From Candidatus Falkowbacteria bacterium (GTDB taxonomy: Bacteria; Patescibacteriota; Patescibacteriia; UBA11705; JABHMO01), in assembly GCA_018674305.1 (NCBI GenBank), contig JABHAL010000010.1:25708-89707 (forward strand): DNA of 64,000 nucleotides, read 5' to 3'. The notes under the pieces were generated by a model. That model made no database searches. It was not told where the DNA came from and was given only the letters and a program-made list of their open reading frames with translations. The position numbers were made by a program, and so were the translations under genes. This document shows, in pieces, positions 2,769 to 44,828 of the stretch (position 1 is the first letter of the stretch; each line of letters starts with the position of its first letter).

Positions 2769-3422
2769 CTAATTGATTTGTTTTGTATTTTCTTTGAACC
2801 AGGACAGTGACACGTAATTTATGTCAGTTTTGCTATCTACGTTATGAGCAACACACAAGTCTCCAGATGAATCTATAAGAAAACCAGTAACTATCCAAGT
2901 GTCAACTTGAACAGCATCTTCGTATTGATATTTTTCACCAATCACAATACCATCAAATTCATTCTTTGCCAAGTAGTACTCTTTACTATTTTCATAAAAC
3001 GGAACATCCGATTCTTTTAATACAGCACCAGGAGAAGTTATTAATACAGACCCATTCTGTCCTGGAAATTTTATAGCGATCTCGTCACTCTCTAATCTAA
3101 GAATAGTGCACCGAATCCACTTTGTAGCATTCCTATAATAAACAATATCTTCAACTGTAATTTCTTCGTCAAACTTAAGATCTTCTATTTTCACCACCTT
3201 TGTCTCAATAAACTCAACAATCTCCTCTTTCTTGGCGATGTAATCGCGCATAACTTGAAGTGCTTCATTGTCACCGGCCTCAGCTTTCTCTTTCAGTTCA
3301 GCAAATCCAAGACCACCTGAGATTTCTTCCAACTCTGACATTAATTTATCAAAATGCACTTGCTGAACTTCGGTGAAGTTAGCTTTGAGGGATTTCTCGG
3401 TTAGTTGTTCTATGCTTTTCAT
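2769..3422 (-). CDS. Paralog-family protein P1: conserved ~75-aa N-terminal helical domain plus a unique C-terminal domain
   Basis: 217 aa. The N-terminus MKSIEQLTEKSLKANFTEVQQVHFDKLMSELEEISGGLGFAELKEKAEAGDNEALQVMRDYIAKKEEIVEFIETK is shared with six other ORFs in this window; the C-terminus is unrelated to theirs. Confidence 0.7.
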   Translation of the reverse strand: MKSIEQLTEKSLKANFTEVQQVHFDKLMSELEEISGGLGFAELKEKAEAGDNEALQVMRDYIAKKEEIVEFIETKVVKIEDLKFDEEITVEDIVYYRNATKWIRCTILRLESDEIAIKFPGQNGSVLITSPGAVLKESDVPFYENSKEYYLAKNEFDGIVIGEKYQYEDAVQVDTWIVTGFLIDSSGDLCVAHNVDSKTDINYVSLSWFKENTKQIN

Positions 3423-3468
3423 ATTTGATATTTTTTAGTAGGTATTGGTTATTGGGTATTAGAAATTT

Positions 3469-3569
3469 TACTCGTTACTGTTCTCGTCCCGCATAGCGGG
3501 ATCCCGTTTGCGGGAGATTTAACATACTTAGTATTGCTTCTCTGCGTAGCGGAGTCCGCTATGCGGACG
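3469..3569. repeat. REPIN-like composite palindromic repeat (copy 1)
   Basis: The arms cccgcATAgcggg and tcccgTTTGcggga, a central agcggAGTccgct, and overall left-arm/right-arm inverted complementarity (cgtcccgcatagcggga ... gtccgctatgcggacg). About 95% identical to the copy at 4281-4380. Confidence 0.7.
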
Positions 3570-14236: not shown

Positions 14237-15061
14237 ATGATAGAAAAAATAATAGATGGTAATGATCTAAGCGAAAAATTTATCCAAAAAATTAAAAAGC
14301 AAGTTCGAGAAATGGAAGAAAAACCAAGCTTGGCTGCTATTTTAGTTGGAGATGATCCAAGCTCAAACTTATATGTTAAATTAAAAAAACGAGCTTGTGA
14401 CGAATGCGAAATTGACTTTCATGGTTATACCATCGAAAAAGATTTCTCCGAAGAAGAACTCATCAAAACCATCCACTTTTTAAATTCTGATCCCAGTACT
14501 GACGGGATTTTAGTTCAATTACCTTTACCCCCCCAATATAATACTGACAAAGTTATTGCTGAACTTGATTTCCGGAAGGACATTGACGGTTTTCATCCGA
14601 CTAACCGAGAAAACATGCAGAAATGTGTCTACAAATTAATGCCTCCGCTACCCGGAGCAATTATCGAAATGATCAAATCTACTGGTGAAGTTATTGAGAA
14701 TAAACAAATTTGTGTTCTTTGCAACACCCCAATGTTTGCTGATCCATTTAAATGTGTTTGGCAAGCCAAAAATACAATTGAAGTAATAACGACTAAAGAT
14801 AATTGGTCTGAAGCCACAAAAAAAGCGGACATATTAATAGTCGCTGTAGGAAATCCTAATTTAATTACTAAAGACTCAATAAAACAAGATGCTATCATTA
14901 TTGATGTGGGAATAAACAAAGTTGGCAAACAAATTATAGGTGATGTAGATCTTGATGATGTAATTGAAAAAGTAAAATATATTTCTCCAGTTCCTCGTGG
15001 CGTAGGTCCCATGACCATTGCCATGTTGCTAAAAAACCTTGTTGAACTGAAAACTTTTTAA
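14237..15061 (+). CDS. folD: Bifunctional methylenetetrahydrofolate dehydrogenase/cyclohydrolase
   Basis: 274 aa with PSSNLYVKLKKRACDE, GILVQLPLP and a C-terminal PVPRGVGPMTIAML, which is diagnostic for FolD. Confidence 0.9.
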   Translation: MIEKIIDGNDLSEKFIQKIKKQVREMEEKPSLAAILVGDDPSSNLYVKLKKRACDECEIDFHGYTIEKDFSEEELIKTIHFLNSDPSTDGILVQLPLPPQYNTDKVIAELDFRKDIDGFHPTNRENMQKCVYKLMPPLPGAIIEMIKSTGEVIENKQICVLCNTPMFADPFKCVWQAKNTIEVITTKDNWSEATKKADILIVAVGNPNLITKDSIKQDAIIIDVGINKVGKQIIGDVDLDDVIEKVKYISPVPRGVGPMTIAMLLKNLVELKTF

Positions 15062-15095
15062 AAAAATTTAGGGCCTGCTCCTTAGAGTCAGGCCC
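15058..15095 (-). terminator. Rho-independent terminator on the minus strand
   Basis: Stem gggcctg/caggccc (15071-15095), followed on the minus strand by a U-run (plus A-run 15058-15066). The plus strand has no T-run after the hairpin. Confidence 0.6.
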
Positions 15096-15612
15096 AATAT
15101 TATAACAAGTATTAAACGAACTAGCCCGGTGGCTCTTCAGTCTGCTGCAGAGTCTGCATGCGAACGGCCTCCTTCAAGCTTAACAATTTACAGGGAGGGT
15201 TAAACCGCCCGAATCGAATCACTATTGTTCGATCCTGACTACCTCGACGTTTACGCGATTTTACGCGAAAAGTCTCGATTTTCCAGGTTTTCCAGCCAAG
15301 CTGTTCAGTTAACTGCTCGATGTGTACGTTCACGAGACAAATCCAGGTGGTCGACTTACAAAGTTTCAACATTTCAATTTAATTGCGACCTTTCAAAAAA
15401 CGTACACTATGAGCTCACATCAGCAATCGCCAGTCATTCGTGGTCCCTCCGTTTTTTATTATCAAATTAGCTCTAAAGAACGTCGGACATTTTTCCCCCT
15501 CCGAACTGGGTGCCACGAGCTAGAGGAATCTCTGCTCGCCAACTACGCATGGTGGCATCACCCCCACCTCGGGCTTCACGCTGAATAACTCAAAGGCTCT
15601 CAGCATGAACGT
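15096..15612 (-). ncRNA. Candidate structured ncRNA of about 520-540 nt, identity unresolved (an RNase P RNA or tmRNA class cannot be excluded)
   Basis: A GC-rich (~50%) island in a ~33% GC genome with no credible ORF; the track ORFs here overlap on both strands. It has a consensus promoter on the minus strand upstream and a terminator downstream. It contains long-range complementary segments such as gggtgccac...gtggcatcaccc. Confidence 0.5.
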
Positions 15613-15618
15613 AACTGC

Positions 15619-15647
15619 ATTATAGCATATACTTAACAACTTGTCAA
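15619..15647 (-). promoter_or_regulatory. Sigma70-type promoter on the minus strand (TTGACA-17-TATAAT) driving the candidate ncRNA
   Basis: On the minus strand: TTGACA (plus 15642-15647), a 17-nt spacer, then TATAAT (plus 15619-15624). Both hexamers match the consensus perfectly. Confidence 0.55.
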
Positions 15648-15744
15648 TAGCCAGATTAACTGCAAGCTAATTTTACACAAAATACTTATCCAGAGTCTAT
15701 TCACTTGTGCTTATTACAATACTCTAATAAGATGTAGATAGATA

Positions 15745-15907: not shown

Positions 15908-17299
15908 ATGTCCGATCAATTACCTAGCAAAATCCCACCACAAAACCTAGAAGCTGAGCAATCTTTGCTAGGCTCTCTTTTGTTAGATAAACATGCATTA
16001 GACAAAATTGCGGACATTATAGACCCTGATGATTTTTACAAAGAGGCCCACCGCTACATTTATGAAGGCATGGTAGATATATACTCAAGACAAGAACCAA
16101 TTGACTTGTTAACCATAACTAACCTTTTAGAAGAACGAAATCATTTAAAAAAAGTTGGGGGGCGCAGTTATCTGGCGAACCTAGCTAATATTGTGCCTAC
16201 GGCCAGTCATGTTATACAATACGCTCACATTATCAAGAAAAAAGCTACTTTGCGACGATTACAACGTGTGGCAACTGAAATTGTGGGCTTATCCAGCAAT
16301 GAAGATGAGGACATTGATAAATTACTAGACCTATCCGAACAAAAACTGTTTACTGTCTCACAACGTTTTTTGAAACAAAGTTTTACTCCAATTAGCAACA
16401 TTCTGGGCGACACTTTTGACAGGATTGATGATATGCACAAAAACTCTGGTCAAATGCGTGGCTTGGCCAGTGGATTTACTGAACTAGATACTCTTCTAGC
16501 AGGATTCCAAAAATCAGACTTAATTGTTTTAGCGGCCCGGCCATCTGTAGGAAAAACTTCCATAGCATTAGACATGGTTCGAGAAATTGGTATTCGAGGA
16601 AAGGTACCAGTTGGTATTTTCAGCTTGGAAATGTCCAAGGAGCAAGTGGTTGACCGCCTGCTCTGCGCTGAATCAAACGTTGATTTATGGAAACTAAGAA
16701 CCGGTCGCCTATCTGACCGTGAAGATGATGATGATTTTCCTAGATTGGGTCATGCCATGGGATTATTATCTGAATCTCCAATTTTCATTGATGATTCAGC
16801 CACCTTAAATGTAATGGAGATCCGAACCAAAGCACGACGATTAAAATCTGAACATAATTTAGGAATGATAGTAATTGATTATCTTCAGTTGATGGAAGCG
16901 CGCGCCAACTCTGAAAGTCGCGTACAGGCTGTAGCAGAAATCACTCGCGCACTTAAAGGAATTGCTCGTGAATTAGATATTCCGGTGTTAGCATTATCTC
17001 AGTTATCCCGTGCGGTAGAAATGAACAAGCCAGCGATTCCAAAATTAGCGAACTTGCGTGAATCTGGTTCAATTGAGCAGGATGCTGATGTTGTACTCTT
17101 CATTTACCGTAAAGCTTCAGATAGAAATTACCGAGATGAAGAATTGACGGCGCAGGAAAAACATATTGCTGAAGTTCACATTGCCAAACATAGAAACGGG
17201 CCTACTGGCCTAGTAAAACTCTTTTTTGACGGACCTAAGGCCAGTTTTCGTAACCTTGATAAACGATTTTCACAACATGAATCCAGCTTTGATGAATAA
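15908..17299 (+). CDS. dnaB: Replicative DNA helicase DnaB
   Basis: 463 aa with a DnaB N-domain, Walker A ARPSVGKTSIALDM, and a RecA-like C-terminal domain. Confidence 0.92.
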   Translation: MSDQLPSKIPPQNLEAEQSLLGSLLLDKHALDKIADIIDPDDFYKEAHRYIYEGMVDIYSRQEPIDLLTITNLLEERNHLKKVGGRSYLANLANIVPTASHVIQYAHIIKKKATLRRLQRVATEIVGLSSNEDEDIDKLLDLSEQKLFTVSQRFLKQSFTPISNILGDTFDRIDDMHKNSGQMRGLASGFTELDTLLAGFQKSDLIVLAARPSVGKTSIALDMVREIGIRGKVPVGIFSLEMSKEQVVDRLLCAESNVDLWKLRTGRLSDREDDDDFPRLGHAMGLLSESPIFIDDSATLNVMEIRTKARRLKSEHNLGMIVIDYLQLMEARANSESRVQAVAEITRALKGIARELDIPVLALSQLSRAVEMNKPAIPKLANLRESGSIEQDADVVLFIYRKASDRNYRDEELTAQEKHIAEVHIAKHRNGPTGLVKLFFDGPKASFRNLDKRFSQHESSFDE

Positions 17300-18843: not shown

Positions 18844-19965
18844 CTATTTTATTTCTCCAGTCAATAGACGATCGCGCCTTTTTTTCTTTGTATAAACATA
18901 GGCTAAAATTAGCATAAATACCACCACAACCAAAACAACTGCTGCCATAAAACTTAAACCTTTATCCTGAAAGGAATATGCAATTAGACCAAAAAGTATA
19001 GCAATTAAATACAAAAAATACACAGCCTGTTTAACACTTAGCCCGGCATCCAACAAACGATGATGCAGATGCTTACGGTCAGCAGAAAATAATGGCTTAT
19101 TTTCCATTCTCCGACGAATCAAAGTCCAAATGAAGTCCAGTACTGGAATTGAAAGTAACATTAAAGTTATTCCAACTTTACTACCACTAATTATAGACAA
19201 ACTACCTAATAAAAAACCGGCCATCGTACTACCACCCTCACCTAAAAATATATTAGCAGGATTAAAATTAAATACCAAAAATCCAGCAAACACCCCGGCT
19301 ATTATCACCGCCAGGAGAGCAACATCATATTGAATAATATCGCCCTTATTTAATGCGGTCAAAAATATAAAAACTGAAGCGATTATTGCTATACCAGAAA
19401 CTAAACCATCAAGACCATCCAAAAGTTTAGTTGTATACATCATAGCGATTAGCCAAGCAAAGGTAAACAAGTCCGCAAATAAAGTTACTTTGTACGGAAA
19501 TCCTTCATACCAAAATAAATTAAAACTGTATTTATTCAATTCAAAAAGTCCTTCACCAATCGGATTGGAAATAAATTCAATGCCAATACCGCAAATAATT
19601 ACACTTAAAATTGCGAATACCGGCCAAATGATTTGCCATTTTGGTTTCAGATCAAACTTATCATCAAGAATACCACCGACTGCCAAAAATAAACTACCAA
19701 TGAATATACCCAAAAGGTTTTTCAAAATTATAGTATCACCAATTAAATCCTTGGTGATGATTGAATAAATAAGTATTACTAAATTTATACTTAAAAAAAT
19801 AGCCAATCCACCGAATAGCGGGGTTGGTTTTTTGTGAATCTTTCTTTGACCATCTGGCCTATCAATTGCCTTGGACCTTTTAGCAATCCAAATAACAACT
19901 GGTGTCAAAATCAGACAAGCAAAAAAAGAAAGCATTAGAGCGAAAATGTAATCGTAGCTGTTCAT
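18844..19965 (-). CDS. Glycosyltransferase family 4 polyprenyl-phosphate HexNAc-1-phosphate transferase (WecA/MraY-like)
   Basis: Multi-pass membrane protein with IDRPDGQRKIHKKPTPLFGG and a DGLDGL motif. The track ORF extends to 20025 through a (caagtaaaa)n tandem repeat that encodes LVLLV; the MNSYDY start at 19965 is preferred. Confidence 0.75.
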   Translation of the reverse strand: MNSYDYIFALMLSFFACLILTPVVIWIAKRSKAIDRPDGQRKIHKKPTPLFGGLAIFLSINLVILIYSIITKDLIGDTIILKNLLGIFIGSLFLAVGGILDDKFDLKPKWQIIWPVFAILSVIICGIGIEFISNPIGEGLFELNKYSFNLFWYEGFPYKVTLFADLFTFAWLIAMMYTTKLLDGLDGLVSGIAIIASVFIFLTALNKGDIIQYDVALLAVIIAGVFAGFLVFNFNPANIFLGEGGSTMAGFLLGSLSIISGSKVGITLMLLSIPVLDFIWTLIRRRMENKPLFSADRKHLHHRLLDAGLSVKQAVYFLYLIAILFGLIAYSFQDKGLSFMAAVVLVVVVFMLILAYVYTKKKRRDRLLTGEIK

Positions 19966-20075
19966 AAGTAAAACTAGCAAGAAGAGCAAGACAAGTAAAA
20001 CAAGTAAAACAAGTAAAACTAACAAGACAGTAACTTGTCTCGTTGGTCTCGCTTGTCTAGCTAGTCTTGCTAGTT
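19966..20075. repeat. Short tandem repeats (caagtaaaa x3 and tgtct-containing units) upstream of the GT4 gene
   Basis: caagtaaaacaagtaaaacaagtaaaac followed by cttgtctcgttggtctcgcttgtctagctagtcttgctag. Confidence 0.6.
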
Positions 20076-23920: not shown

Positions 23921-23959
23921 ACAAAAAAAGAGGACTAATTCGCATTGCGAATTAGTCCC
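23921..23959 (-). terminator. Strong rho-independent terminator on the minus strand
   Basis: Perfect 12-bp stem ggactaattcgc/gcgaattagtcc with a 3-nt loop, followed on the minus strand by a 7-U run (plus A-run 23923-23929). Confidence 0.75.
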
Positions 23960-25233
23960 TTTACCATCGTTGAACATTGACTTGTGGGCCAACATCCTCG
24001 TACATTAAAGTTTGATTTTACCATTACAGTTTGTCTTTGAGACACGGTTTGTTCATTTGTGAAGTGCTAGTTTTGAAGCTTGGCTTAACCAATTCTTGAT
24101 TTTTGTTTTGTTCTGACCGAGGTCAGTTTCCAACTATTACAAGTTTGGCGACTTACCGTCCCGAAGGATGGCTAAAGATAGTTTATCACTCTATGATTGC
24201 TCATTGAGTTTCCGCTATCAAGTCTTACTTTTGCTTTTTCTTCTAGTTCTTCTGAACATTCCTTGTGTTCTGTTGTCTTGTCAACACTAGGCTGACATCG
24301 CGTGAAGGTTAATTGTCTGACCGAAGTCAGTGAGGAACATTTCGCTAGCCGAAGCTTTTGATTTGTTCTTACTTTTAACTTTCCAGAATACTTTGCTCTT
24401 TGGACATTAGCTGTTTCGTTTACTTGCTGGATTTTTGTTTTCTTCCTTTCGGAGGATCACTTTGTCCACTGGGGTAAACTACTAGTTCGTTTTCTCTGTC
24501 GTTCTGTAGTCTTGCTAAAGCAGTTTTACCAAGGAGTTTTTCGTTTTTACACAAAATACTTCTTGATTTTTTTGCTTTGATGCAAGTTGCTTGCGTTGAA
24601 GATTGGCTCTTGATCTAGTCTTGGCTAGCTTTTTTCTTCTGTTACCGAAGTAACGTCAGAATCCGGTTAACTTTGATTTTGATCCGTCATAGCTTATCTT
24701 CTGCATGCCCACTGATCGATTTTGATTGCGAATTAGCGACGTTTAACTTACTTGCCTCGAAAGGTTTTCTGTCTTTGTCTACTGCTAATTTACTGTTTAG
24801 CTCCATTTATAATAGTAGTCGTTGGTTTTTCCGAAGAAAATCCTGACTGCTAAATAGAGGCCAAATCTGTCATTGCCTTTTCTGAGTGGGTTGGTTACCA
24901 CTACAGTAAAAGCTCGAGATCTGTGGTGCATGTTAGTGTCAAGGCGCTTTTCACGGCTGTGCCCTTAAGTCAGTTGTCCAAGTTAATTTGGAGTATTGCT
25001 ACTCTTTGGTTAACTTTTTCTCCTGTCTCAGGACTCCACCTCAGAACTTGCATTCTTTGGTTTCCCTTGTCTTTACTTGCTCAATTACTTGTAATGAACT
25101 TTGTTGATGGTAATTCACATTATACTCGTATATCAAAACCTGTCAAGTGCCTAACTGTGGATAACTTTTAACTCTATTTTTTGTTTAATTTTAGAGGAAA
25201 ACTTTACCCCATTGACAAAATTATATATTATTG
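23960..25233 (-). ncRNA. Candidate large (~1.3 kb) structured ncRNA on the minus strand
   Basis: Only one short track ORF (24923-25171). The plus strand is T/G-rich and A-poor, so the minus-strand RNA is A/C-rich. At least five ccgaag sites on plus correspond to C(UUCG)G on minus, each flanked by complementary stems (for example gttac-CGAA-gtaac at 24640 and ctgac-CGAA-gtcag at 24318). It ends at the 23921-23959 terminator. Confidence 0.45.
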
Positions 25234-25304: not shown

Positions 25305-25997
25305 ATGATGGAAGCTACGCTAATTGGTGTTTTTGTTTTAAGTGTACTTATCTTCTTGTATTGGACATGGACACTTATGTTTGTACGGAACATAGACACT
25401 GAAGCCTTTATGGCCCAGATTCAAAAACTGATCATGGCCAACAACCTTGACCGAGCAATTAAACTTTGTAATGCTGCCCCAAATGCAGTCATGACTCAGC
25501 TGACTAAAAGCGTTTTGATTTGCGCTAATCAACCACACAGATTATATCTAGCCTATCTACAGACGACTTTCAAGCTGAATCACGAGGCGAAAAACCTAAA
25601 AAAATCTCCAACCCGAATCACAATTATTATTCTCATTTATGGGCTACTAGTAATGGGTTTCGTTGTGCAACCTCTAGGCTGGACGTTGGGTGCGGTTCTA
25701 GGCATCATTGCTTTTGTTTTGCTATCGCTGACCTCTGCGTTCATTTCCGCTCGTCTTGTCAAAACCAAAAAGGACAAGTTATACCTATTCAGGCTGATGG
25801 ACCTCTTGCAATATCGAATGGCTAATTACAACACGGATGAATCCAACGAAGGCCTAACTTTTATGCAAGCCAGGCCACTAACTGAAGACGAACTAGCCAG
25901 GCGCATGTCAACTGGGGCGCCTCCCCCGAAGGTTAGACCTTCGCCAGTGGACGAACTCAAATCAAAATTGCAATCCGAACTATTACCCAAGCTTTAG
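25305..25997 (+). CDS. Hypothetical membrane protein (paralog A of a tandem pair)
   Basis: 230 aa with ribosome-binding site GAAGGAGGG. Topology is TM1, a soluble segment containing NNLDRAIKLCNAAP, a TM2-TM3 hairpin, then a C-terminal tail. GC is elevated (~45-48%). Confidence 0.65.
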   Translation: MMEATLIGVFVLSVLIFLYWTWTLMFVRNIDTEAFMAQIQKLIMANNLDRAIKLCNAAPNAVMTQLTKSVLICANQPHRLYLAYLQTTFKLNHEAKNLKKSPTRITIIILIYGLLVMGFVVQPLGWTLGAVLGIIAFVLLSLTSAFISARLVKTKKDKLYLFRLMDLLQYRMANYNTDESNEGLTFMQARPLTEDELARRMSTGAPPPKVRPSPVDELKSKLQSELLPKL

Positions 25998-26009
25998 GGA
26001 GGACGAATA

Positions 26010-26708
26010 ATGCTATTTGTGATTGGTATAATACTCTGTGTATTTGCAGGTTTAACGATCCTTGGTTCCATAATCGAAATAATGAAAGAAAGTATCGCTA
26101 TTACTGCCTTCATGCATCAGGTAAAAAAGCTGGTTCTGAGCAATAATATTGATCGAGCAATTAAGTTGTGTAACTGCGCGCCCCATTCAACGTTAGCCGT
26201 TGCAGCTAAAAAGCTGTTAACTAGAGCTAACAAGAACAGTGCGCTGTACCAAACATTTTTACAAGCCAAAATGGAACTTGAGATAGAAAGTTGGTCAAAC
26301 AAGTCTGCTACCAAATGGGCTTTGTGGAACCTAACACTTGCAATTGGATTTTTCACTGCTGGCTCTATGTACAACATGTTATTCGAGGGAGCGCTTTTGT
26401 GCGGTATTGCCTATACCAGTTTCTCACTAGCACAGTTTGTGTCCTCATTCAGACACAAACTGCTTTGCAAAGAGATTCCAGCCCTAGAGGACTTACTCCA
26501 AACACTAATGGAGCGCTTAGGGGTAACTGCCCCTGACTTTGCTCTATTAGATAATCCATCTCAGGAACTGCTAGCTAAACAAGAAAAGCTAATGGAAGCC
26601 TTTGAGCGGAGTTACACCAAAGACAAAGATGCTGGTCGAGAAACTCGACCGGTAGAAGCTGTTTTCCTCGAGAAGATAGATCTACGAACCGGTCTTTTCC
26701 CTGCTTAG
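26010..26708 (+). CDS. Hypothetical membrane protein (paralog B of the tandem pair)
   Basis: 232 aa with ribosome-binding site AGGGAGG. It shares NNIDRAIKLCNCAP and the same topology as 25305-25997. Confidence 0.65.
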   Translation: MLFVIGIILCVFAGLTILGSIIEIMKESIAITAFMHQVKKLVLSNNIDRAIKLCNCAPHSTLAVAAKKLLTRANKNSALYQTFLQAKMELEIESWSNKSATKWALWNLTLAIGFFTAGSMYNMLFEGALLCGIAYTSFSLAQFVSSFRHKLLCKEIPALEDLLQTLMERLGVTAPDFALLDNPSQELLAKQEKLMEAFERSYTKDKDAGRETRPVEAVFLEKIDLRTGLFPA

Positions 26709-26770
26709 ACAACCAAAAAGTCGATTGTTCACAACAATCGACTTTTTTATTATTCAATACTAAATGTCTA

Positions 26771-27385
26771 CTAAAGGTATTCTTTTAATACTTCTAAAAA
26801 ATTATCAAAATCAATTGCCCTATTTTTAAAATCTAAATCGTCATAATTAATAATAATCACTTGCGCCAACTTGAAATTGCCAGCCCAGTTGTCATACAGA
26901 TCATTTAAATCTTTAATATATTTACGGTCAATGGTTTTCTCAAAATCCCGCCCGCGCTTTTCAATTCTCTGCATTATTCTATCCACAGAAGCTCGCAGAT
27001 AAATAACCAAGTCAGGTGCGGGTAAAATTTTCGTGCAAACTTTATAGATCTGACGATACGATTTCCAGTCTCGTTTGGAAATATGTTTTCTATTATATAA
27101 ATGCCGGGCAAACACTTCTGCATTTTCATAAATACTACGATCTTGAATTACTGAATGTTTATCCACAGTTAAATCATAATGATCCTGCAATCTCTTGCCC
27201 AAGAAAAACATTTGCGAATGGTATGCCCACTTTTTCATGTCTTTGTAAAAATCTTCCAGGTACGGATTTTCGGTTACCGGTTCTATATATGGCTTCAACT
27301 TAAAATGACCAGCTAACTTTTTAGTTAGAGTTGATTTTCCAATTCCAATGTTGCCTGAGATGGCGATGAATTTCTTATTCTTCAT
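26771..27385 (-). CDS. Deoxynucleoside kinase (dCK/dGK family)
   Basis: 204 aa with P-loop AISGNIGIGKSTLTKKL, plus YIEPV and ERS-like motifs. Confidence 0.8.
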   Translation of the reverse strand: MKNKKFIAISGNIGIGKSTLTKKLAGHFKLKPYIEPVTENPYLEDFYKDMKKWAYHSQMFFLGKRLQDHYDLTVDKHSVIQDRSIYENAEVFARHLYNRKHISKRDWKSYRQIYKVCTKILPAPDLVIYLRASVDRIMQRIEKRGRDFEKTIDRKYIKDLNDLYDNWAGNFKLAQVIIINYDDLDFKNRAIDFDNFLEVLKEYL

Positions 27386-27394
27386 ACAGATTAC

Positions 27395-27908
27395 AGATTT
27401 GTACGGGTGTACGGATTAATTAGGATTTAATTAATATTAACTACTCTTCTAAATTTTACTCCTTCAGGTGAAAACAAGATTAACAAACCAACCTCTAATT
27501 TCAATAGTTTTAAGTATTCATTTATTTGATCAAAGTCTTTTCTAATAAATCTTTTACCCACTTTCAACTCAATCAATATTAAATCAAAAAATAATATATC
27601 CAAACGACTATTACCAATTTTTTCACCTTTATATTTAACTGGCAAATTAATTTGAGAACTTACTGGAATATTTTTACTTTCAGAATCCTTTATTATTGCT
27701 CTTTCATAATATTTTTCTCTGTATCCAGATCCTAATTCATTATAAACATCAAACATTATTCCAATTATAATTTCTGTTTTGTCTTTATGAAGGAGTTCCA
27801 TATATGTCTATTCTATCAAATTTTTCAAGATCCGTACATCCCAACTACCGCGAACAGGCGCACAAATCCGTTAACTGTTTTTGTGAATCCGTACATCCGT
27901 ACAAATCT
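27395..27908. mobile_element. Cassette of about 514 bp bounded by 23-bp terminal inverted repeats and carrying a GxxExxY-family gene
   Basis: The left end 27395-27417, reverse-complemented, reads aatccgtacacccgtacaaatct. The right end 27886-27908 reads aatccgtacatccgtacaaatct, a 22/23 match. Extra TCCGTAC iterons lie at 27830 and 27913. Confidence 0.5.
27427..27801 (-). CDS. GxxExxY protein (PD-(D/E)XK-fold family, TIGR04256-like)
   Basis: 124 aa. ...IIIGIMFDVYNELGSGYREKYYERAI...GNSRLDILFFDLILIELKV fits the GxxExxY family pattern. Confidence 0.7.
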   Translation of the reverse strand: MELLHKDKTEIIIGIMFDVYNELGSGYREKYYERAIIKDSESKNIPVSSQINLPVKYKGEKIGNSRLDILFFDLILIELKVGKRFIRKDFDQINEYLKLLKLEVGLLILFSPEGVKFRRVVNIN

Positions 27909-27923
27909 AAAATCCGTACCTAT

Positions 27924-27961
27924 ATAAAAAAACAGAGCCTGGTTAGAGAACCAAGGCTCTG
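27924..27961 (-). terminator. Rho-independent terminator after lipoprotein 1
   Basis: cagagcctgg...ccaaggctctg hairpin followed on the minus strand by a U-run (plus aaaaaaa 27924-27932). Confidence 0.7.
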
Positions 27962-27972
27962 TTGTGTTATTA

Positions 27973-28515
27973 CTATTTATCTTCGATAACACGTACCATT
28001 GCCGGCGGAGTGGCCAGCTGAAGTGGCTGATCGCACAGCATGTACGTCCCGCTCCACTCTAGGTAAACATCATCCGTAGTAAAGAAGAAAACCGCGTCAC
28101 CATTGGTTCCGTACGAACCATCGAGCTGCGGGCTTTCCACAACCTTACCACCAACACGTCTACGTGCAAAAGGATCATCGACAATCTGTTCACCAGTAGT
28201 TAACTTGGAGTTAACACTGGAGACCTTACCCTTGATAGTATGAAAGGCCATCACCTTACCATAGCTAACCAGGTAAATGTAGCTGATCTTGTTCGGATCA
28301 TTGAAACGGTTAAGCCGCTTTGACAGGTTATCTCGCTCCAAAGAACTCTCGATCTTGGGCGGCGGCGTGGCCTTGATCAGACGACCCTGCTGCTCTTCCG
28401 TGAAATTGGCCTCTGCCTTCTGGGTCTCACCCTGGCCCTCGTAGGACTCATCATCACAACCAACAAAGGCAGTGAACGCGAAAACACACGCAATTGCCAG
28501 CATAATTTTCTTCAT
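27973..28515 (-). CDS. Lipoprotein paralog 1 (unknown family)
   Basis: 180 aa with signal and lipobox AFTAFVGC. Conserved core LIKATPPPKIESSLER...ISYIYLVSYGKVMAFHTIKGKV...VESPQLDGSYG...PLQLATPP. Local GC is about 50-55%. Confidence 0.7.
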   Translation of the reverse strand: MKKIMLAIACVFAFTAFVGCDDESYEGQGETQKAEANFTEEQQGRLIKATPPPKIESSLERDNLSKRLNRFNDPNKISYIYLVSYGKVMAFHTIKGKVSSVNSKLTTGEQIVDDPFARRRVGGKVVESPQLDGSYGTNGDAVFFFTTDDVYLEWSGTYMLCDQPLQLATPPAMVRVIEDK

Positions 28516-29102
28516 TTCGACACCTCCTCGTCGCTCGTATCAGTCTTGGGATTATCCTCAATAATGCGAACCATCTCCGGAGGAGTAGACAGCTGAAGTG
28601 GTTGGTCGCTCAGCATGTATGCACCGTTCCACTCCAAGTAAATATCGTCCGTGGTGAAGAAGAAAACCGCATCGCCATTAGTTCCATATGAACCATCGAG
28701 CTGCGGGCTTTCTACTACCTTACCAGACCTGCCCTCATGATGAGCAAAAGGATCCTTCACGATCTGCTCACCAGTAGTCAACTTTGAATTAACACTAGAA
28801 ACCTTTCCCTTGATTGCATGAAAGGCCATGACCTTACCAAAATCGACCAAGTAGATATAACTGATCTTGTTGGGATCATTGAAACGAACAAGACGCTTGG
28901 CCAAATTCTCACGCTCCAAAGAGCTCTCGATCTTGGGCGGTGGGGTGGACTTGATCAGACGACCCTGCTGCGCTTCCGTGATCTTAGCTTCTTCCTTCTG
29001 GGTCTCACCCTGGCCCTCATAAGTTTGCTTTTCCGTCTTGCAGCCAACAAAGGCAAACGCCAGAATCAAGCTAAACAAAACCAACGTCTTTCCAGTCCTC
29101 AT
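28512..29102 (-). CDS. Lipoprotein paralog 2
   Basis: 196 aa with lipobox AFAFVGC and ribosome-binding site GAGGAGG. It is about 70% identical to paralog 1, and its stop overlaps the paralog 1 start (ATGA). Confidence 0.7.
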   Translation of the reverse strand: MRTGKTLVLFSLILAFAFVGCKTEKQTYEGQGETQKEEAKITEAQQGRLIKSTPPPKIESSLERENLAKRLVRFNDPNKISYIYLVDFGKVMAFHAIKGKVSSVNSKLTTGEQIVKDPFAHHEGRSGKVVESPQLDGSYGTNGDAVFFFTTDDIYLEWNGAYMLSDQPLQLSTPPEMVRIIEDNPKTDTSDEEVSK

Positions 29103-29226
29103 CGCAACCTCCTCAAGGTTATTAAGATGAATACACTAACAGATAGTGTAAACATCCTATAATATCACATATGAAATACTTTGTCAATAGCGACTGTAAT
29201 TTTACCACAAAGTCGCCCCTTTGAGA

Positions 29227-29263
29227 TAAAAAAACAGAGCCTGGTTAGAGAACCAAGGCTCTG
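29227..29263 (-). terminator. Rho-independent terminator after lipoprotein 3 (duplicate of the 27924-27961 module)
   Basis: Same hairpin and A-run. About 60 bp including the gene 3' end is duplicated (aaaaaacagagcctggttagagaaccaaggctctgtYgtgttattactaYttgtcttcgat). Confidence 0.7.
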
Positions 29264-29274
29264 TCGTGTTATTA

Positions 29275-29817
29275 CTACTTGTCTTCGATCATCCGGACCA
29301 TGGCCGGTGGCGTAGACAGTTGCAGTGGCTCAGTAAGCCACATGTAATCACCTCGCCACTGGACCAATACTTCTTCTGTAGTCCAGAAGAAGATCGCGTC
29401 TTCACTCGGACCATAGGATCCGTCCAATCCAGGACTTTCCATCGTATGTCGAGTTCGTCCAGCGCCAGTTGATCCATCGCCGACCTCGACAACCTGATCA
29501 CGCGTAGTCAACTTAGACGAACAATAAGTAACCTTGCCCTTCACCGTATGAAAGGCCATCACCTTGCCATAACTGATCAAGTAAATATAAGAGATTCGAT
29601 CTTCACGATTGATCTCCTTGAGATACTTCACCAGATTCTCCCGCTCTAGAGAATTTTTCATCTCCGGCGGAGGAGTCGACTTGAGTAACCGTTCCTGGTT
29701 CCTCTCTGTCATTTCCATCTCATCGATGGTAGTCTGGCCAGTATCCAGCGCCTTACCGCAACTGATCATACCCATAGCCAGAACACAGAGAGTAACAATC
29801 GTCATAAGCTTCTTCAT
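29275..29817 (-). CDS. Lipoprotein paralog 3 (diverged)
   Basis: 180 aa with lipobox GMISCG. It is about 45% identical to paralogs 1 and 2 and conserves the TPPPEM, ISYIYLISYGKVMAFHTVKGKV and PLQLSTPPAMVRMIEDK blocks. Confidence 0.7.
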   Translation of the reverse strand: MKKLMTIVTLCVLAMGMISCGKALDTGQTTIDEMEMTERNQERLLKSTPPPEMKNSLERENLVKYLKEINREDRISYIYLISYGKVMAFHTVKGKVTYCSSKLTTRDQVVEVGDGSTGAGRTRHTMESPGLDGSYGPSEDAIFFWTTEEVLVQWRGDYMWLTEPLQLSTPPAMVRMIEDK

Positions 29818-29826
29818 GTCAATCTC

Positions 29827-30342
29827 CTACTGGCCGGGGATAGTGAAATCTGCCGGATGCGTCGCCGGAAGATCATCAGTTTTGAACAGCTCACGGTTGG
29901 CCATTTCAGTTCGCGCATTGTACTTGGCCACCACGTCTCGCCGTTGATTCTGCAGACCCAGCACGATCGTGTTGAGTCGAGAATACTCGGTCTTGTCCTC
30001 GAACGTCCAATCCTTGCGCGGACCAGCGTCTTCCTTGAAGCGCTTGAGCGCCGCGTCAGAATTGACGATCTTGGACTCCAGCGACAGGATATCCTGATTC
30101 GTCTGCTTGAACCACTCGTAGTTCTGGATCACGTTGTCCGCGTCCAGAGTCTTCTCCATGATCTTCACAGCCTGCTCGCCGGGATAACACACCACCCGGA
30201 CAACCGTCCCGATGAGTCCCAACACAATCACAACTGCGAGGATCTTGAAGAACATACTCCAAGGTCCACCTTTGGCCAGGTTGTAGGCCGTGTTTTCGTA
30301 CTTTCGCCCAACATCATCCCATCGATCATCATTCCGTGTCAT
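29827..30342 (-). CDS. LemA-like membrane protein (low-confidence family assignment)
   Basis: Ribosome-binding site AAGGAGGTG before the internal ATG (MTRNDDR). One transmembrane helix (FFKILAVVIVLGLIGTVV) then a helical region with YNARTEMANRELFK, loosely LemA-like. The track ORF extends to 30369. Confidence 0.45.
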   Translation of the reverse strand: MTRNDDRWDDVGRKYENTAYNLAKGGPWSMFFKILAVVIVLGLIGTVVRVVCYPGEQAVKIMEKTLDADNVIQNYEWFKQTNQDILSLESKIVNSDAALKRFKEDAGPRKDWTFEDKTEYSRLNTIVLGLQNQRRDVVAKYNARTEMANRELFKTDDLPATHPADFTIPGQ

Positions 30343-30473
30343 CTCCACCTCCTTAAGGTTTAGACACAAAAATACTTCTATTCAGCAACACAGTTTTCAT
30401 AAGAGTATAGCATAAAGATTAAATACTGTCAACCCTATTACCTAAATTTACAACAGAAATACTATTTGAAACA

Positions 30474-43684: not shown

Positions 43685-43713
43685 TTGACAAAACGCAAAA
43701 TGTATGCTATAAT
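43685..43713 (+). promoter_or_regulatory. Consensus sigma70 promoter TTGACA-17-TATAAT
   Basis: ttgaca (43685-43690), 17-nt spacer aaacgcaaaatgtatgc, tataat (43708-43713). The -35 context atacttgacaaaa is also found at 59941. Confidence 0.65.
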
Positions 43714-43719
43714 GAAACC

Positions 43720-43951
43720 TGTTCGTTGAAAATTGTTACTATAGTTAAATTAATTATAGTAACAGGAGTGCCCGACAAAAGCCTTAGGGTGTCAGGCCAA
43801 GAATGTTCATTAAAAGACTGAAATTAAAGAAACCCCAACAAATGGAGATCGTCATGACCTGGACTTAAATTCATTTAGCCCCATCGGACCACAGTAGGTT
43901 GTTAATTCTTAGGAATAACAACTGAAGGTCACAGAGATGGGGCCTTTTTTT
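43720..43951 (+). ncRNA. Candidate ~230-nt small RNA
   Basis: It starts about 7 nt after the -10 and ends with an intrinsic terminator: stem gccccatc/gatggggc enclosing gttgtta...taacaac, then a 7-T run. Internal hairpin gttactata...tatagtaac. No ORF. The following gene is on the opposite strand, so a riboswitch is unlikely. Confidence 0.55.
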
Positions 43952-44828
43952 ACAAAATAATAAATATCCCACCCGCCACAATCAGACCAATCGCCATGGT
44001 CTTTTTTAGTAACACTTTTCTACTATGTCTTTCCAAAATAATTTTAGGATAAAAAAAGCTCAGGAAAGTAGCTGCAAAAAACACCAACATTGGTTTAGTC
44101 GCCATTAAAGCTGAAACCAATGAAACCGAACCCAAACTAATGGCTTTGGTGAAAAAGATTAGGGCCAATCCAGATAAAATCGCAACAAAGCACAAATGAA
44201 TAATTCCCACTTTTGCCTTTTCCCGAATATGAGGATGATGGACCACTAACAAAACTAAAGGAACAACTATTCCACCAATTCCAAACCAGAATAACATTGG
44301 CCAAAAATCAATACCTGAACTTACATACTTAATTAAAATATTTCTCAATGCAAAAAACATCATTGCAACAAAAGCAAAAACATAGAATTTAAATAATTTA
44401 CTTTTGGCCTCCGATTTTCGATGAGTGATTAAAACCGCCCCAGTGATTATAAGTAAAATCCCAATATAGTTCATAATACTTAAGCGTTCCTGAAAAACAA
44501 AAAACGCAATAGCCGAAATCAACAACGGTTCAGTCGATAACATCGGGGCCAGTCGAGAAACTTCAACCTTTTTCATGGCCATATAGTAAAAACCCAGGCC
44601 CGTAGAATAAATAATTCCTGCCAACATTGCCATAATTACCATCCAAACCGGAATAATTACGCCACCATTCAGAACTGCTACTAAAATGAACAGTAAATAA
44701 ATTGTAAATCCAAAAACCGTAGTAACTAAAATAGGGTCTCGTAGTTCATGCCCAATTATATATTTATCCATGATGTTCACCACAGTCCATAAGAGCATGG
44801 CAATTAGAGTAAAAATGATCCAAAGCAT
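43950..44828 (-). CDS. EamA/DMT-family transporter
   Basis: 292 aa with about 10 transmembrane helices in two EamA-like halves. Confidence 0.7.
   Translation of the reverse strand: MLWIIFTLIAMLLWTVVNIMDKYIIGHELRDPILVTTVFGFTIYLLFILVAVLNGGVIIPVWMVIMAMLAGIIYSTGLGFYYMAMKKVEVSRLAPMLSTEPLLISAIAFFVFQERLSIMNYIGILLIITGAVLITHRKSEAKSKLFKFYVFAFVAMMFFALRNILIKYVSSGIDFWPMLFWFGIGGIVVPLVLLVVHHPHIREKAKVGIIHLCFVAILSGLALIFFTKAISLGSVSLVSALMATKPMLVFFAATFLSFFYPKIILERHSRKVLLKKTMAIGLIVAGGIFIIL

Follow-up and report, generated by a model that had tools for sequence, protein, structure and literature searches.

A conserved RNA gene of no described family, with Shine-Dalgarno-led mini-ORFs, between folD and dnaB of Falkowbacteria-like Patescibacteria

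Introduction

The gap between folD and dnaB in a Candidatus Falkowbacteria bacterium (Patescibacteriota) contains a gene for a clade-specific structured RNA of Falkowbacteria-like Patescibacteria that belongs to no described RNA family. It lies in a stretch of 64,000 nucleotides (nt) of contig JABHAL010000010.1 (assembly GCA_018674305.1, positions 25,708 to 89,707), called the window below, whose own numbering is used throughout. The unit runs on the minus strand from a consensus promoter to an intrinsic terminator, is conserved in a relative and has counterparts at the same site in other lineages; there is strong evidence that it represents an RNA family under selection that has so far gone unannotated. 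Within it are very short open reading frames (mini-ORFs) led by Shine-Dalgarno sequences, and these suggest, at a probability that we put near 0.4, a new ribosome-engaging regulatory RNA on whose mini-ORFs ribosomes would stall. The unit had been noticed earlier from the letters alone; this sequence-only reading took it for either a divergent RNase P RNA or transfer-messenger RNA (tmRNA) or an uncharacterised large non-coding RNA (ncRNA).

Bacteria of the candidate phyla have tiny genomes, and almost nothing is known of their gene regulation at the RNA level. The RNA described here joins a large fold, mini-ORFs resembling leader peptides and arrest motifs that proteomes avoid, features that are normally separate, and it adjoins genes for the replicative helicase and for one-carbon metabolism. 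If the mini-ORFs stall ribosomes, the mechanisms of arrest peptides and proline-codon RNAs would reach a housekeeping context outside CRISPR and secretion control, and a further class of RNA genes would become annotatable in Patescibacteria, where gene callers place spurious hypothetical proteins. No description of such an RNA in bacteria of the candidate phyla radiation (CPR) was found in the literature consulted.

Conservation

The whole unit is found again, at the same place, on a metagenome contig of 1.9 kb, L060. The inferred 553-nt transcript (15060-15612, minus strand), whose start is placed 7 nt past the -10 element and whose end is set at the U-tract of the terminator, aligns end to end with L060 1874-1318, and the homology is found by nhmmer with E=4e-127. 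Pairwise identity is 86.6% over 561 alignment columns; the mean column identity of the same alignment, 93%, is a different statistic. Identity is distributed unevenly. A block of 333 columns that comprises the core and the 3' extension (alignment 168-500, window 15450-15121) is 94.3% identical and the terminator 92%, while the 5' hairpin is 63% identical and two internal linkers are 58% and 60%, which we take as about the neutral level. The FolD proteins of the two organisms are 65% identical, and their folD genes 71% at the nucleotide level and 51% at third codon positions.

The unit is thus under selection and conserved far above neutral expectation. Constrained blocks set between near-neutral linkers indicate purifying selection on the RNA and argue against recent horizontal transfer. 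The sequence-only reading had let its proposal depend on conservation in related genomes, and this was found, at 94.3% in the block against 51% at the third codon positions of folD. Closer relatives were absent from the protein database, where no DnaB lies between 80% and 99% identity, so that a deeper covariation analysis of the 3' extension is impossible.

Distribution and family members

Loci were gathered through relatives of FolD and DnaB, and all of them have glyA, folD, dnaB, ybaB and recR as neighbours. The FolD of the window organism itself is listed in 56 index blocks of the public collection, and 23 contigs with it were read. Related or analogous units occupy the same site in the same orientation in at least eight other lineages and range from 120 to ~930 nt. 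Each has its own sigma-70 promoter and intrinsic terminator, and its strand is always opposite to that of folD and dnaB. In six further loci (L002, L003, L005, L006, L057 and L067) folD almost touches dnaB and there is no unit.

Two subfamilies can be recognised. Subfamily A shares a 27-nt core, GGAGGGACCACGAAUGACUGGCGAUUG, and comprises the window unit (553 nt), L060 (557 nt), L062 (361 nt), L068 (248 nt) and the units of L004, L048 and L064 (~180 nt). The core differs by 0-2 changes among L060, L062, L004/L048, L064 and L068, whose FolD proteins are ~60-65% identical to that of the window. Searches with the core found no homolog in viral contigs, and in metagenome contigs only L048, which is the organism of L004, apart from chance matches in high-GC genes. 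Subfamily B (L053-56, L061, L065 and L066; 285-327 nt) consists of mutually alignable units tied to subfamily A by position, architecture and short blocks, namely ...CGUUCAC..., the helix around UUUUGAAA, and GCGUGAACG.UAC. Two further members stand outside these groups, an analogous unit of 120 nt in L050 and a GC-rich unit of ~930 nt in L008 (Falkowbacteria UBA11705).

The transcription signals keep their place as well. The U-tract of the terminator overlaps or touches the folD stop codon in nine of the ten members compared, the exception being L068 with a gap of ~8 nt. The promoters of L004, L053, L061, L062, L065 and L066 read TTGACA-17-TAAAAT, TAATAT or TACTAT at the same place, and L068 and L008 have a perfect TTGACA-17-TATAAT there.

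The unit of L008 (2726-3690, minus strand) has 58% GC, a perfect promoter with extended -10 and no counterpart in Rfam. It carries the element GAGGGCAGAAAGCGCAUGA twice, leading to the mini-ORFs MNRS and MTV, and its first mini-ORF ends in RGPP. In five more distant Patescibacteria (L007, L010, L012, L013 and L016) a permease gene of ~400 amino acids (aa), resembling amino-acid transporters, is divergent from dnaB and there is no RNA unit; L010 has in addition a GC-rich stretch (3200-3500) between the permease gene and dnaB. The idea that the unit is the leader of a divergent transporter gene was rejected, as these five loci have a real permease gene and no homologous RNA.

Tests against known RNAs and protein genes

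No Rfam 15 model reached its gathering score anywhere in the 64 kb (cmscan). Between 14900 and 15800 no model of RNase P RNA, tmRNA, signal recognition particle (SRP) RNA, 6S RNA, OLE, GOLLD or ROOL matched at E<=10, the two matches there being due to chance; the chance-level Rfam matches were to snoRNA, CbSR12 and miRNA models at E 1-5. Eleven homologous or analogous loci searched at E<=5 yielded nothing relevant in Rfam, and the 35 related loci that include all homologs of the unit yielded two tRNAs and noise only. HEARO, raiA and all other Rfam 15 families likewise gave no covariance-model match for the unit or its relatives. ARAGORN found 0 tmRNA or tRNA genes in the window, and the unit has no tRNA-like end; its small ORFs have a Shine-Dalgarno sequence and an AUG, unlike the start-less tag frame of tmRNA.

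The cmscan proposed by the sequence-only reading, against RNase P, tmRNA, SRP, 6S, OLE, GOLLD and ROOL models, therefore returned no match. A divergent RNase P RNA or tmRNA finds no support either there or with ARAGORN, and the SRP and 6S options fare no better even at E<=10. The length range of 120-~930 nt and the absence of the unit in several relatives are also unlike a universal housekeeping RNA, a test of presence and size that covers the folD-dnaB locus only. The suggestion of an uncharacterised large ncRNA was borne out in substance, by conservation far above neutral, by the lack of protein homology and by compensatory changes in some helices.

The unit contains, as had been noted from the letters, only short and overlapping ORFs on both strands, of 83 aa (minus), 81 aa (plus) and 88 aa (plus). 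Five ORFs had no match in Pfam or PHROGs. The 83-aa ORF, compared with 5.8 billion proteins by a word-index search, matched only its own database record, a 70-aa 'hypothetical protein', and the 81-aa antisense ORF had 0 matches among 1.84 billion cluster representatives (exhaustive HMMER). A protein homolog in any frame would have spoken for a protein gene, and there was none in the frames tested against these sets. In L060 two 1-nt indels destroy the 83-aa frame, and the sense strand has no stop-free stretch of 40 codons or more. A protein gene was thus rejected, since it has no homologs and its long frame is broken. Public annotation places a 70-aa gene, HN858_02510, inside the unit (15121-15333, minus strand); this prediction, for which there are no homologs, is almost certainly spurious. 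Calls of the same spurious kind are seen in L061 (41 aa), L064 (57 aa) and L068 (66 aa).

A CsrA sponge of the CsrB/RsmZ type was also rejected. In all 11 members GGA is as frequent as expected from dinucleotide shuffles (10 observed against 10.6 expected for the window RNA), and tblastn detected no CsrA-like ORF in the window.

Mini-ORFs

The sequence-only reading had seen no ORF in the unit. This holds for conventional genes, but it missed that the best-conserved elements are Shine-Dalgarno-led mini-ORFs. In every member of the family, strong sites of the GGAGG type lie 4-10 nt before an AUG, GUG or UUG that opens a frame of 5-12 codons. A Shine-Dalgarno-like sequence, loosely defined, precedes only ~15 of the 52 long ORFs of the window; with such sites rare in the genome, the conserved strong ones in the unit are unlikely to be incidental.

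In the 27-nt core (15424-15450, minus strand) a Shine-Dalgarno sequence is followed, after 8 nt of spacer, by the start of mini-ORF1, which reads AUG ACU GGC GAU UGC UGA (15420-15437, minus strand) and encodes MTGDC (peptides are written up to their stop codon). This peptide is kept with a UGA stop in the window and L060, UAA in L062 and UAG in L068, with a synonymous change between GAU and GAC; L004 and L064 have MTGDWP or MTGDWS instead. Mini-ORF2, AUG CAG ACU CUG CAG CAG ACU GAA GAG CCA CCG GGC UAG (15121-15159, minus strand), encodes MQTLQQTEEPPG, is preceded by AAGGAGG 8 nt upstream, ends in EEPPG and is invariant in L060. A third candidate, MSDVL (transcript nt 123), loses its AUG in L060 and was not counted.

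In subfamily B the first mini-ORF encodes MSETPPDQ, MAETPPGQ, MVTPPGNC or MVTPPDK, with an in-frame indel of 3 nt. The terminal one encodes MNNIRDAPM or MN(R/Y)IRAPA; its start switches between GUG and AUG and its stop between UAG and UGA, it has another 3-nt indel that keeps the frame, and AAU/AAC and AUU/AUC are exchanged synonymously. Elsewhere the terminal ORFs are MIEIPPN (L062) and MPRAPPI (L068), and the first mini-ORF of L008 is MRVCFARGPP. The Pro-Pro codons differ by lineage, being CCA CCG, CCG CCG or CCG CCU. The changes in the mini-ORFs look like those of coding sequence, being synonymous, or indels that keep the frame, or exchanges of one start or stop codon for another.

Sequences that cannot be aligned at the nucleotide level converge on a similar ending, with Pro-Pro-(G/D/N), RAPP, RGPP or RAP close to the stop codon. 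By member, the motifs are RAPP in L068, RGPP in L008, RAPA in L061 and L066, and PPG, PPD or PPN in the window, L062 and subfamily B; EEPPG of mini-ORF2 in the window is a polyproline motif and not RAPP. RAPP and RGPP cause robust arrest at the peptidyl-transferase centre that is partly refractory to elongation factor P (EF-P), and they are depleted from bacterial proteomes (PMC10951233, PMC12992588). Polyproline pausing, which EF-P relieves, affects intrinsic termination through the coupling of transcription and translation (PMC5021804).

The position of the mini-ORFs is also recurrent. Ten of 11 members have a Shine-Dalgarno-led mini-ORF that ends within 30 nt of the terminator stem. From stop to stem, most members have 3-9 nt; L053 has 16 nt, and L060 and the window have 25-26 nt. 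By indicative figures, 2-6% of the dinucleotide shuffles of a member show the same arrangement (11% in the case of the short L050), and 0.4-1.1% do when a Pro is required among the last 3 residues. Shine-Dalgarno-led Pro-Pro ORFs of up to 25 codons number two distinct cases on both strands of the 64 kb, where 0.6 are expected, and one of the two is mini-ORF2; in 420 kb of related loci ~4 distinct background cases compare with 5 distinct ones inside these RNAs. Two other promoter-terminator units noticed in the window have no Shine-Dalgarno-led mini-ORFs.

Two further readings of these elements were tried and set aside. A T-box or tRNA-like reading of the core was dropped, the UGGN bulge and the T-loop being absent by eye, and the sequestration of rare-codon tRNAs by mini-ORF1 found no support, since its codons are not tandem rare codons.

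Transcription signals and structure

The unit sits in the 846-nt gap between folD (14237-15061, plus strand) and dnaB (15908-17299, plus strand), with glyA upstream of folD and with ybaB and recR downstream of dnaB. The flanking genes are those that the letters had suggested, folD being identified by the Pfam family THF_DHG_CYH. The promoter (15619-15647, minus strand; TTGACAAGTTGTTAAGTATATGCTATAAT) is TTGACA-17-TATAAT, an exact 12/12 match to the sigma-70 consensus as had been claimed, and has in addition an extended -10 TG (TGnTATAAT). Perfect TTGACA-N16-18-TATAAT sites number 6 in the 64-kb window against 0.11 expected. The organism evidently uses the consensus, and the promoter of the unit is one of few very strong ones; the RNA is proposed to be abundant.

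The intrinsic terminator (15060-15095, minus strand) was likewise confirmed. Its stem-loop, GGGCCUGACUCUAAGGAGCAGGCCC (15095-15071; free energy -19.2 kcal/mol), carries AAGGAG in the loop and an internal mismatch in the stem, presumably the reason why a simple terminator scan did not list it, and is followed by the U-tract UAAAUUUUUUU, which ends at 15060, one base from the folD stop codon, which the terminator abuts. The GC enrichment reported from the letters is real, though its size was overstated (~50% against ~33%): the 553-nt unit has 46% GC, with windows of 200 nt reaching 51%, against an average of 36.7% in the 64-kb window.

Between the promoter of the RNA and dnaB, outside the transcript, lie tandem DnaA-box-like sites, TTATCCAGA gtc TATTCACTT (15686-15706, plus strand). 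The same pair, with consensus TTATCCA[G/C]N..TTATCAACTTGT, is present upstream of the unit in L004, L050, L053, L061, L062 and L065. A replication origin at the locus was rejected: DnaA boxes are not enriched, and the window has no switch in GC skew, so that the sites do not mark oriC. They probably reflect control of dnaB, the RNA or both by DnaA.

The RNA folds better than shuffled sequences in both orientations (z = -2.7 and -2.8), a measure that does not discriminate between them. Local helices are more informative. At the 5' end, the hairpin CAUGCUGA...UCAGCGUG (15577-15607, minus strand) keeps its pairing in L060: A:U becomes G:C and U:A becomes C:G, both double compensatory changes, and there are two switches between G:C and G:U or A:U and G:U. 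It is followed by a GC-rich 5' domain (15478-15575, minus strand; 81% identical to L060), which includes AGCCCGAGGUGG (15575-15564) and a GGGUG...CACCC helix. The complementarity that the sequence-only reading had pointed out here, between GGGUGAUGCCAC (15563-15552) and GUGGCACCC (15516-15508), is present, but L060 keeps only its outer GGGUG/CACCC part, the inner half losing 2 of 5 pairs. An A-rich variable linker (15451-15468, minus strand; 58%) separates this domain from the first Shine-Dalgarno sequence.

The larger part of the conserved 3' extension (15193-15419, minus strand) lies inside the 94.3% block. It contains the helix GUGUACGUU/AACGUACAC (15407-15399 with 15330-15322), in which an A:U pair becomes G:U in L060, as well as GUCUCG/CGAGAC, tandem CUGGAAAA and UCGCGUAAA repeats, the hairpin GGAUCGAA...UUCGAUUC and a CCCUCCC complementary to the first Shine-Dalgarno sequence. 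Other members have the helix flanking UUUUUUGAAA in a different sequence, GGCGC/GCGCC in L062 and CGUUCACGC/GCGUGAACG in subfamily B. The second Shine-Dalgarno sequence (AAGGAGG) is presented by the hairpin GCUU-GAAGG-AGGC (15167-15179, minus strand), whose closing G:C pair is U:A in L060, a double compensatory change. An AU-rich variable linker (15096-15120, minus strand; 60%) connects mini-ORF2 with the terminator.

Several pairings are predicted to involve the mini-ORFs. The 3' end of mini-ORF2, CCACCGGGCU, may pair with AGCCCGAGGUGG, and the first Shine-Dalgarno sequence of the window, GGAGGG, with CCCUCC; both Shine-Dalgarno sequences are predicted to be largely sequestered, with unpaired probabilities of 0.02 and 0.12. 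In subfamily B the region of the first Shine-Dalgarno sequence and start codon would pair with an invariant ...AUGGGAUCC, and a 5' ACGU with the last codon and stop of the terminal ORF. The consensus fold of the window and L060 has 144 pairs, none broken, with 3 double changes, figures that come from two sequences only and are biased. That of four subfamily B sequences has 94.8% of its cells paired and 3 double changes, and 22 of 500 shuffles reach its score.

Interpretation

In the ribosome-engaging regulatory RNA that we favour, GC-rich helices around the mini-ORFs could sequester the ribosome-binding sites. Ribosomes would start translation of the mini-ORFs and be paused or arrested when they reach the Pro-Pro (RAPP/RGPP-like) C-termini, for a dwell time set by the translation apparatus, for example by EF-P, Pro-tRNA, release factors or the capacity for formylation and initiation. 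Occupancy by ribosomes would then remodel the RNA fold. The output might be attenuator-like, a choice between folding of the terminator and read-through antisense to folD-glyA, which would explain why the gene is always convergent on folD and overlaps its 3' end; or it might resemble that of the CRISPR-associated CreT RNAs, the RNA tying up ribosomes or factors in trans. FolD and GlyA supply the 10-formyl-tetrahydrofolate used to formylate the initiator tRNA, and feedback from translation to their operon would therefore be thematically plausible. Translation of the mini-ORFs, the stalling and the nature of the output are all read from sequence features and are put forward in that sense.

A number of observations weigh against this proposal. 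No sense-strand gene lies past the terminator, so that the output of a classical attenuator is missing. With a gap of 25-26 nt from stop to stem in the window, a terminating ribosome would not cover the stem, and the candidate antiterminator pairings seen by eye are short (AGUCAGG/CCUGACU in the window, GGAUCCG/CGGAUCC in subfamily B), and L004 and L068 have none. Invariance of the 27-nt core extends to the spacer and to third codon positions, more than coding alone would account for, and points to a ligand or partner at the RNA level. Mini-ORF1 (MTGDC) has no known stalling motif, L050 has no terminal mini-ORF, L008 fits in part, and the model leaves unexplained ~230 nt of the best-conserved block in which there is no mini-ORF. 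Support for a global structure is weak, the consensus folds resting on 2 and 4 sequences. The covariation analysis that the sequence-only reading had proposed came out divided: the local compensatory changes described above are there, whereas the minimum-free-energy fold of the window RNA by itself was not confirmed by L060, where 12 pairs are kept and 15 broken, the same ratio as in the permuted control. Finally, the definitions of Shine-Dalgarno sequence, mini-ORF and terminal position were fixed after the data had been seen, which makes the enrichment figures indicative only.

The mini-ORFs might instead be untranslated by-products of a classical structured ncRNA, such as a trans-acting small RNA (sRNA) or the RNA of a ribonucleoprotein, with the GGAGG and AUG blocks as motifs at the RNA level. 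A core fixed at every position across ~60% FolD identity, a 94% block of 333 columns mostly free of mini-ORFs, the compensatory changes in local helices, promoters as strong as those of abundant housekeeping RNAs and the presence in L008 of CCACCGG-like strings outside any ORF all fit such an RNA. It leaves unexplained the in-frame indels, start and stop switching and synonymous changes in three mini-ORFs, the recurrence of Pro-Pro, RAPP and RGPP in non-homologous sequence and the constant placement of a mini-ORF just before the terminator; moreover, no extended complementary target was found for the RNA in the window, its length and sequence turn over fast, and some relatives do without it. 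We regard it as rather unlikely, though deserving to be kept in view. Somewhat further down the scale is a CreT-like proline-codon RNA, a brake on translation that would act in trans, as a toxin or growth regulator, by trapping ribosomes, EF-P or tRNA-Pro and would be held in check by the GC-rich fold, the DnaA boxes or both. Translation arrest by P. aeruginosa CreT requires, and is achieved by, a Shine-Dalgarno sequence, a mini-ORF of 15 nt in which two Pro codons are consecutive, and a GC-rich hairpin; for CreT2 toxicity, where the Pro codons lie near the stop, the structure of the hairpin matters and not its sequence (bioRxiv 10.64898/2026.06.02.729485). The three elements required there are found in the architecture of our units, whose promoters are perfect or near-perfect, whose Shine-Dalgarno sequences are predicted to be largely sequestered and which have DnaA-box-like sites conserved beside the promoter. 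Against this, the neighbourhood has no CRISPR-Cas system and no CreA-like partner, no CRISPR family turned up when the window was scanned with Rfam, and the context is one of syntenic housekeeping genes; Pro-Pro is followed by 1-3 more codons before the stop, CreT is much smaller than the units, most of whose conserved sequence lies outside the module, mini-ORF1 has no rare or tandem codons, and the fixed position convergent on folD is left without a reason.

The other explanations have far less in their favour. That the RNA is a messenger for micropeptides, with MTGDC and MQTLQQTEEPPG acting as signals or cofactors, would suit the coding-like conservation of the mini-ORFs, but it is improbable for peptides of 5-12 residues without an export signal that differ wholly between subfamilies save for the Pro-Pro or Ala-Pro theme, in an RNA whose selective constraint is mostly outside the ORFs. 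More doubtful still is a decaying remnant with no present function, be it a pseudogene, the leader of a lost gene or the scar of a mobile element. Patchy presence, wide variation in length and the lack of a downstream gene would agree with it; 94% identity over 333 columns, against ~51-60% at neutral sites, and a consensus promoter and terminator intact in every member do not, and there is no protein homology in any frame tested and no second copy or repeat of the unit in the window. Least credible is a divergent RNase P RNA, tmRNA, SRP RNA or 6S RNA. The unit is GC-rich, strongly promoted and in the right range of size for one, and GGAGGGGGAAAAAUGUCCGA bears a superficial likeness to the P4 region of RNase P RNA, yet the covariance-model and ARAGORN searches reported above were negative, a tRNA-like end is lacking, size varies ~8-fold and close relatives lack the unit.

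A wider proposal, which is speculative and on balance unlikely, extends the ribosome-engaging RNA to a stand-alone class of 'ribosome-sensor' RNAs in Patescibacteria. Their arrest mini-ORFs would sense the state of the translation machinery, possibly including its capacity for formylation and initiation, and either feed back on the glyA-folD one-carbon operon, through terminator read-through or antisense transcription made possible by the fixed convergent overlap with the 3' end of folD, or throttle translation globally, in which case the RNA would be an endogenous, CRISPR-independent proline-codon RNA.

Other features of the window

A second promoter-to-terminator unit of ~1.2 kb without a long ORF lies at 23930-25146 (minus strand) and may be another large ncRNA. 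Its promoter is a perfect TTGACA-16-TATAAT (25146-25119), with a perfect DnaA box, TTATCCACA (25164-25156), just upstream of the -35 element. An A-rich body with many UUCG-tetraloop hairpins leads to a terminator at ~23975-23935, and the unit has no Rfam match and no Shine-Dalgarno-led mini-ORFs. A unit of ~240 nt (43685-43955, plus strand) is located between two minus-strand genes, with a perfect promoter at 43685-43713 and the terminator CCCCAUC...GAUGGGGCCUUUUUUU, and again has neither an Rfam match nor mini-ORFs.

At 25305-30369 lies an island of raised GC content (48% at 28-30 kb). Its six ORFs are 180-232 aa long, and none has a Pfam match. Five of the six have a strong Shine-Dalgarno sequence, unlike most genes of the window, and the island is possibly foreign or clade-specific DNA. 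The Glycos_transf_4 (MraY/WecA-like) gene at 18844-20025 (minus strand) has a longest ORF that starts with TTG and adds a repetitive N-terminus, MLVLLVLLVLLVLLFLLVLL, which is probably due to an over-extended start or to a short tandem DNA repeat upstream of the true start. The 52 long ORFs of the window end in TAA (32), TAG (16) or TGA (4).

Relation to known systems

Among known systems, attenuators with leader peptides (trpL, pyrL, hisL) and rnTrpL of Sinorhizobium (PMC6614838) resemble the unit in having a short Shine-Dalgarno-led ORF in a structured, leader-like RNA, with an intrinsic terminator a few nt past the ORF; here the stop lies 3-26 nt before the stem in the ten members that have a terminal mini-ORF. 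The released RNA could also act alone, as rnTrpL does (PMC6614838). In contrast to these attenuators, our units have no sense gene past the terminator but a convergent folD, to which read-through would be antisense, Pro-Pro or arrest-like motifs in place of runs of a regulated amino acid, up to three mini-ORFs, RNAs of up to 550-930 nt and only short candidates for antiterminator pairing. RAPP-like arrest peptides (ApdA, ApdP, ApcA and SecM with its RAGP) and EF-P-dependent pauses (PMC10951233, PMC12992588, PMC5021804) have a C-terminal motif near the stop of a small ORF in a regulatory position, to which RAPP of L068, RGPP of L008 and, less exactly, RAPA and the Pro-Pro motifs correspond in the family. 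The known arrest peptides, however, are tens of residues long, often include a secretion or membrane segment and stand upstream of a regulated gene, whereas the mini-ORFs described here have 5-12 codons and stand alone in a non-coding RNA.

CreT (bioRxiv 10.64898/2026.06.02.729485; for the tRNA-sequestering CreT, PMC8501985) provides a Shine-Dalgarno sequence, a mini-ORF of a few codons, two of them consecutive Pro codons, and a stable GC-rich hairpin in an RNA that acts through the ribosome and not through a protein product, as we propose for the unit. The three elements occur in the terminal modules of the window RNA, where the terminator supplies the hairpin, and of L062 and L068, more tightly in these two, and also in subfamily B, where the first mini-ORF is followed by the hairpin GGGGAUUUCCCC. 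Our units differ from CreT in having no cas, CRISPR or CreA context, a larger conserved fold and extra codons between Pro-Pro and the stop.

Dual-function sRNAs (SgrS/SgrT, RNAIII/hld, SR1) are likewise stand-alone sRNA genes with their own promoter and terminator, a small ORF and conserved RNA outside it; the peptides here are far shorter and are not conserved across the family, and no base-pairing seed or target was found. Large ncRNAs (OLE, GOLLD, ROOL, raiA, HEARO), like RNase P RNA and tmRNA, are GC-rich, several hundred nt long, conserved and structured, and stand out in AT-rich genomes as the unit does. The present family is distinguished from them by the lack of covariance-model similarity, by a very fast turnover of size, by its confinement to one syntenic locus in one clade and by its Shine-Dalgarno-led mini-ORFs. 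The components of the unit thus have precedents, and what is new is their combination: a large conserved fold with several mini-ORFs and no downstream gene, in a fixed position convergent on folD at a housekeeping locus.

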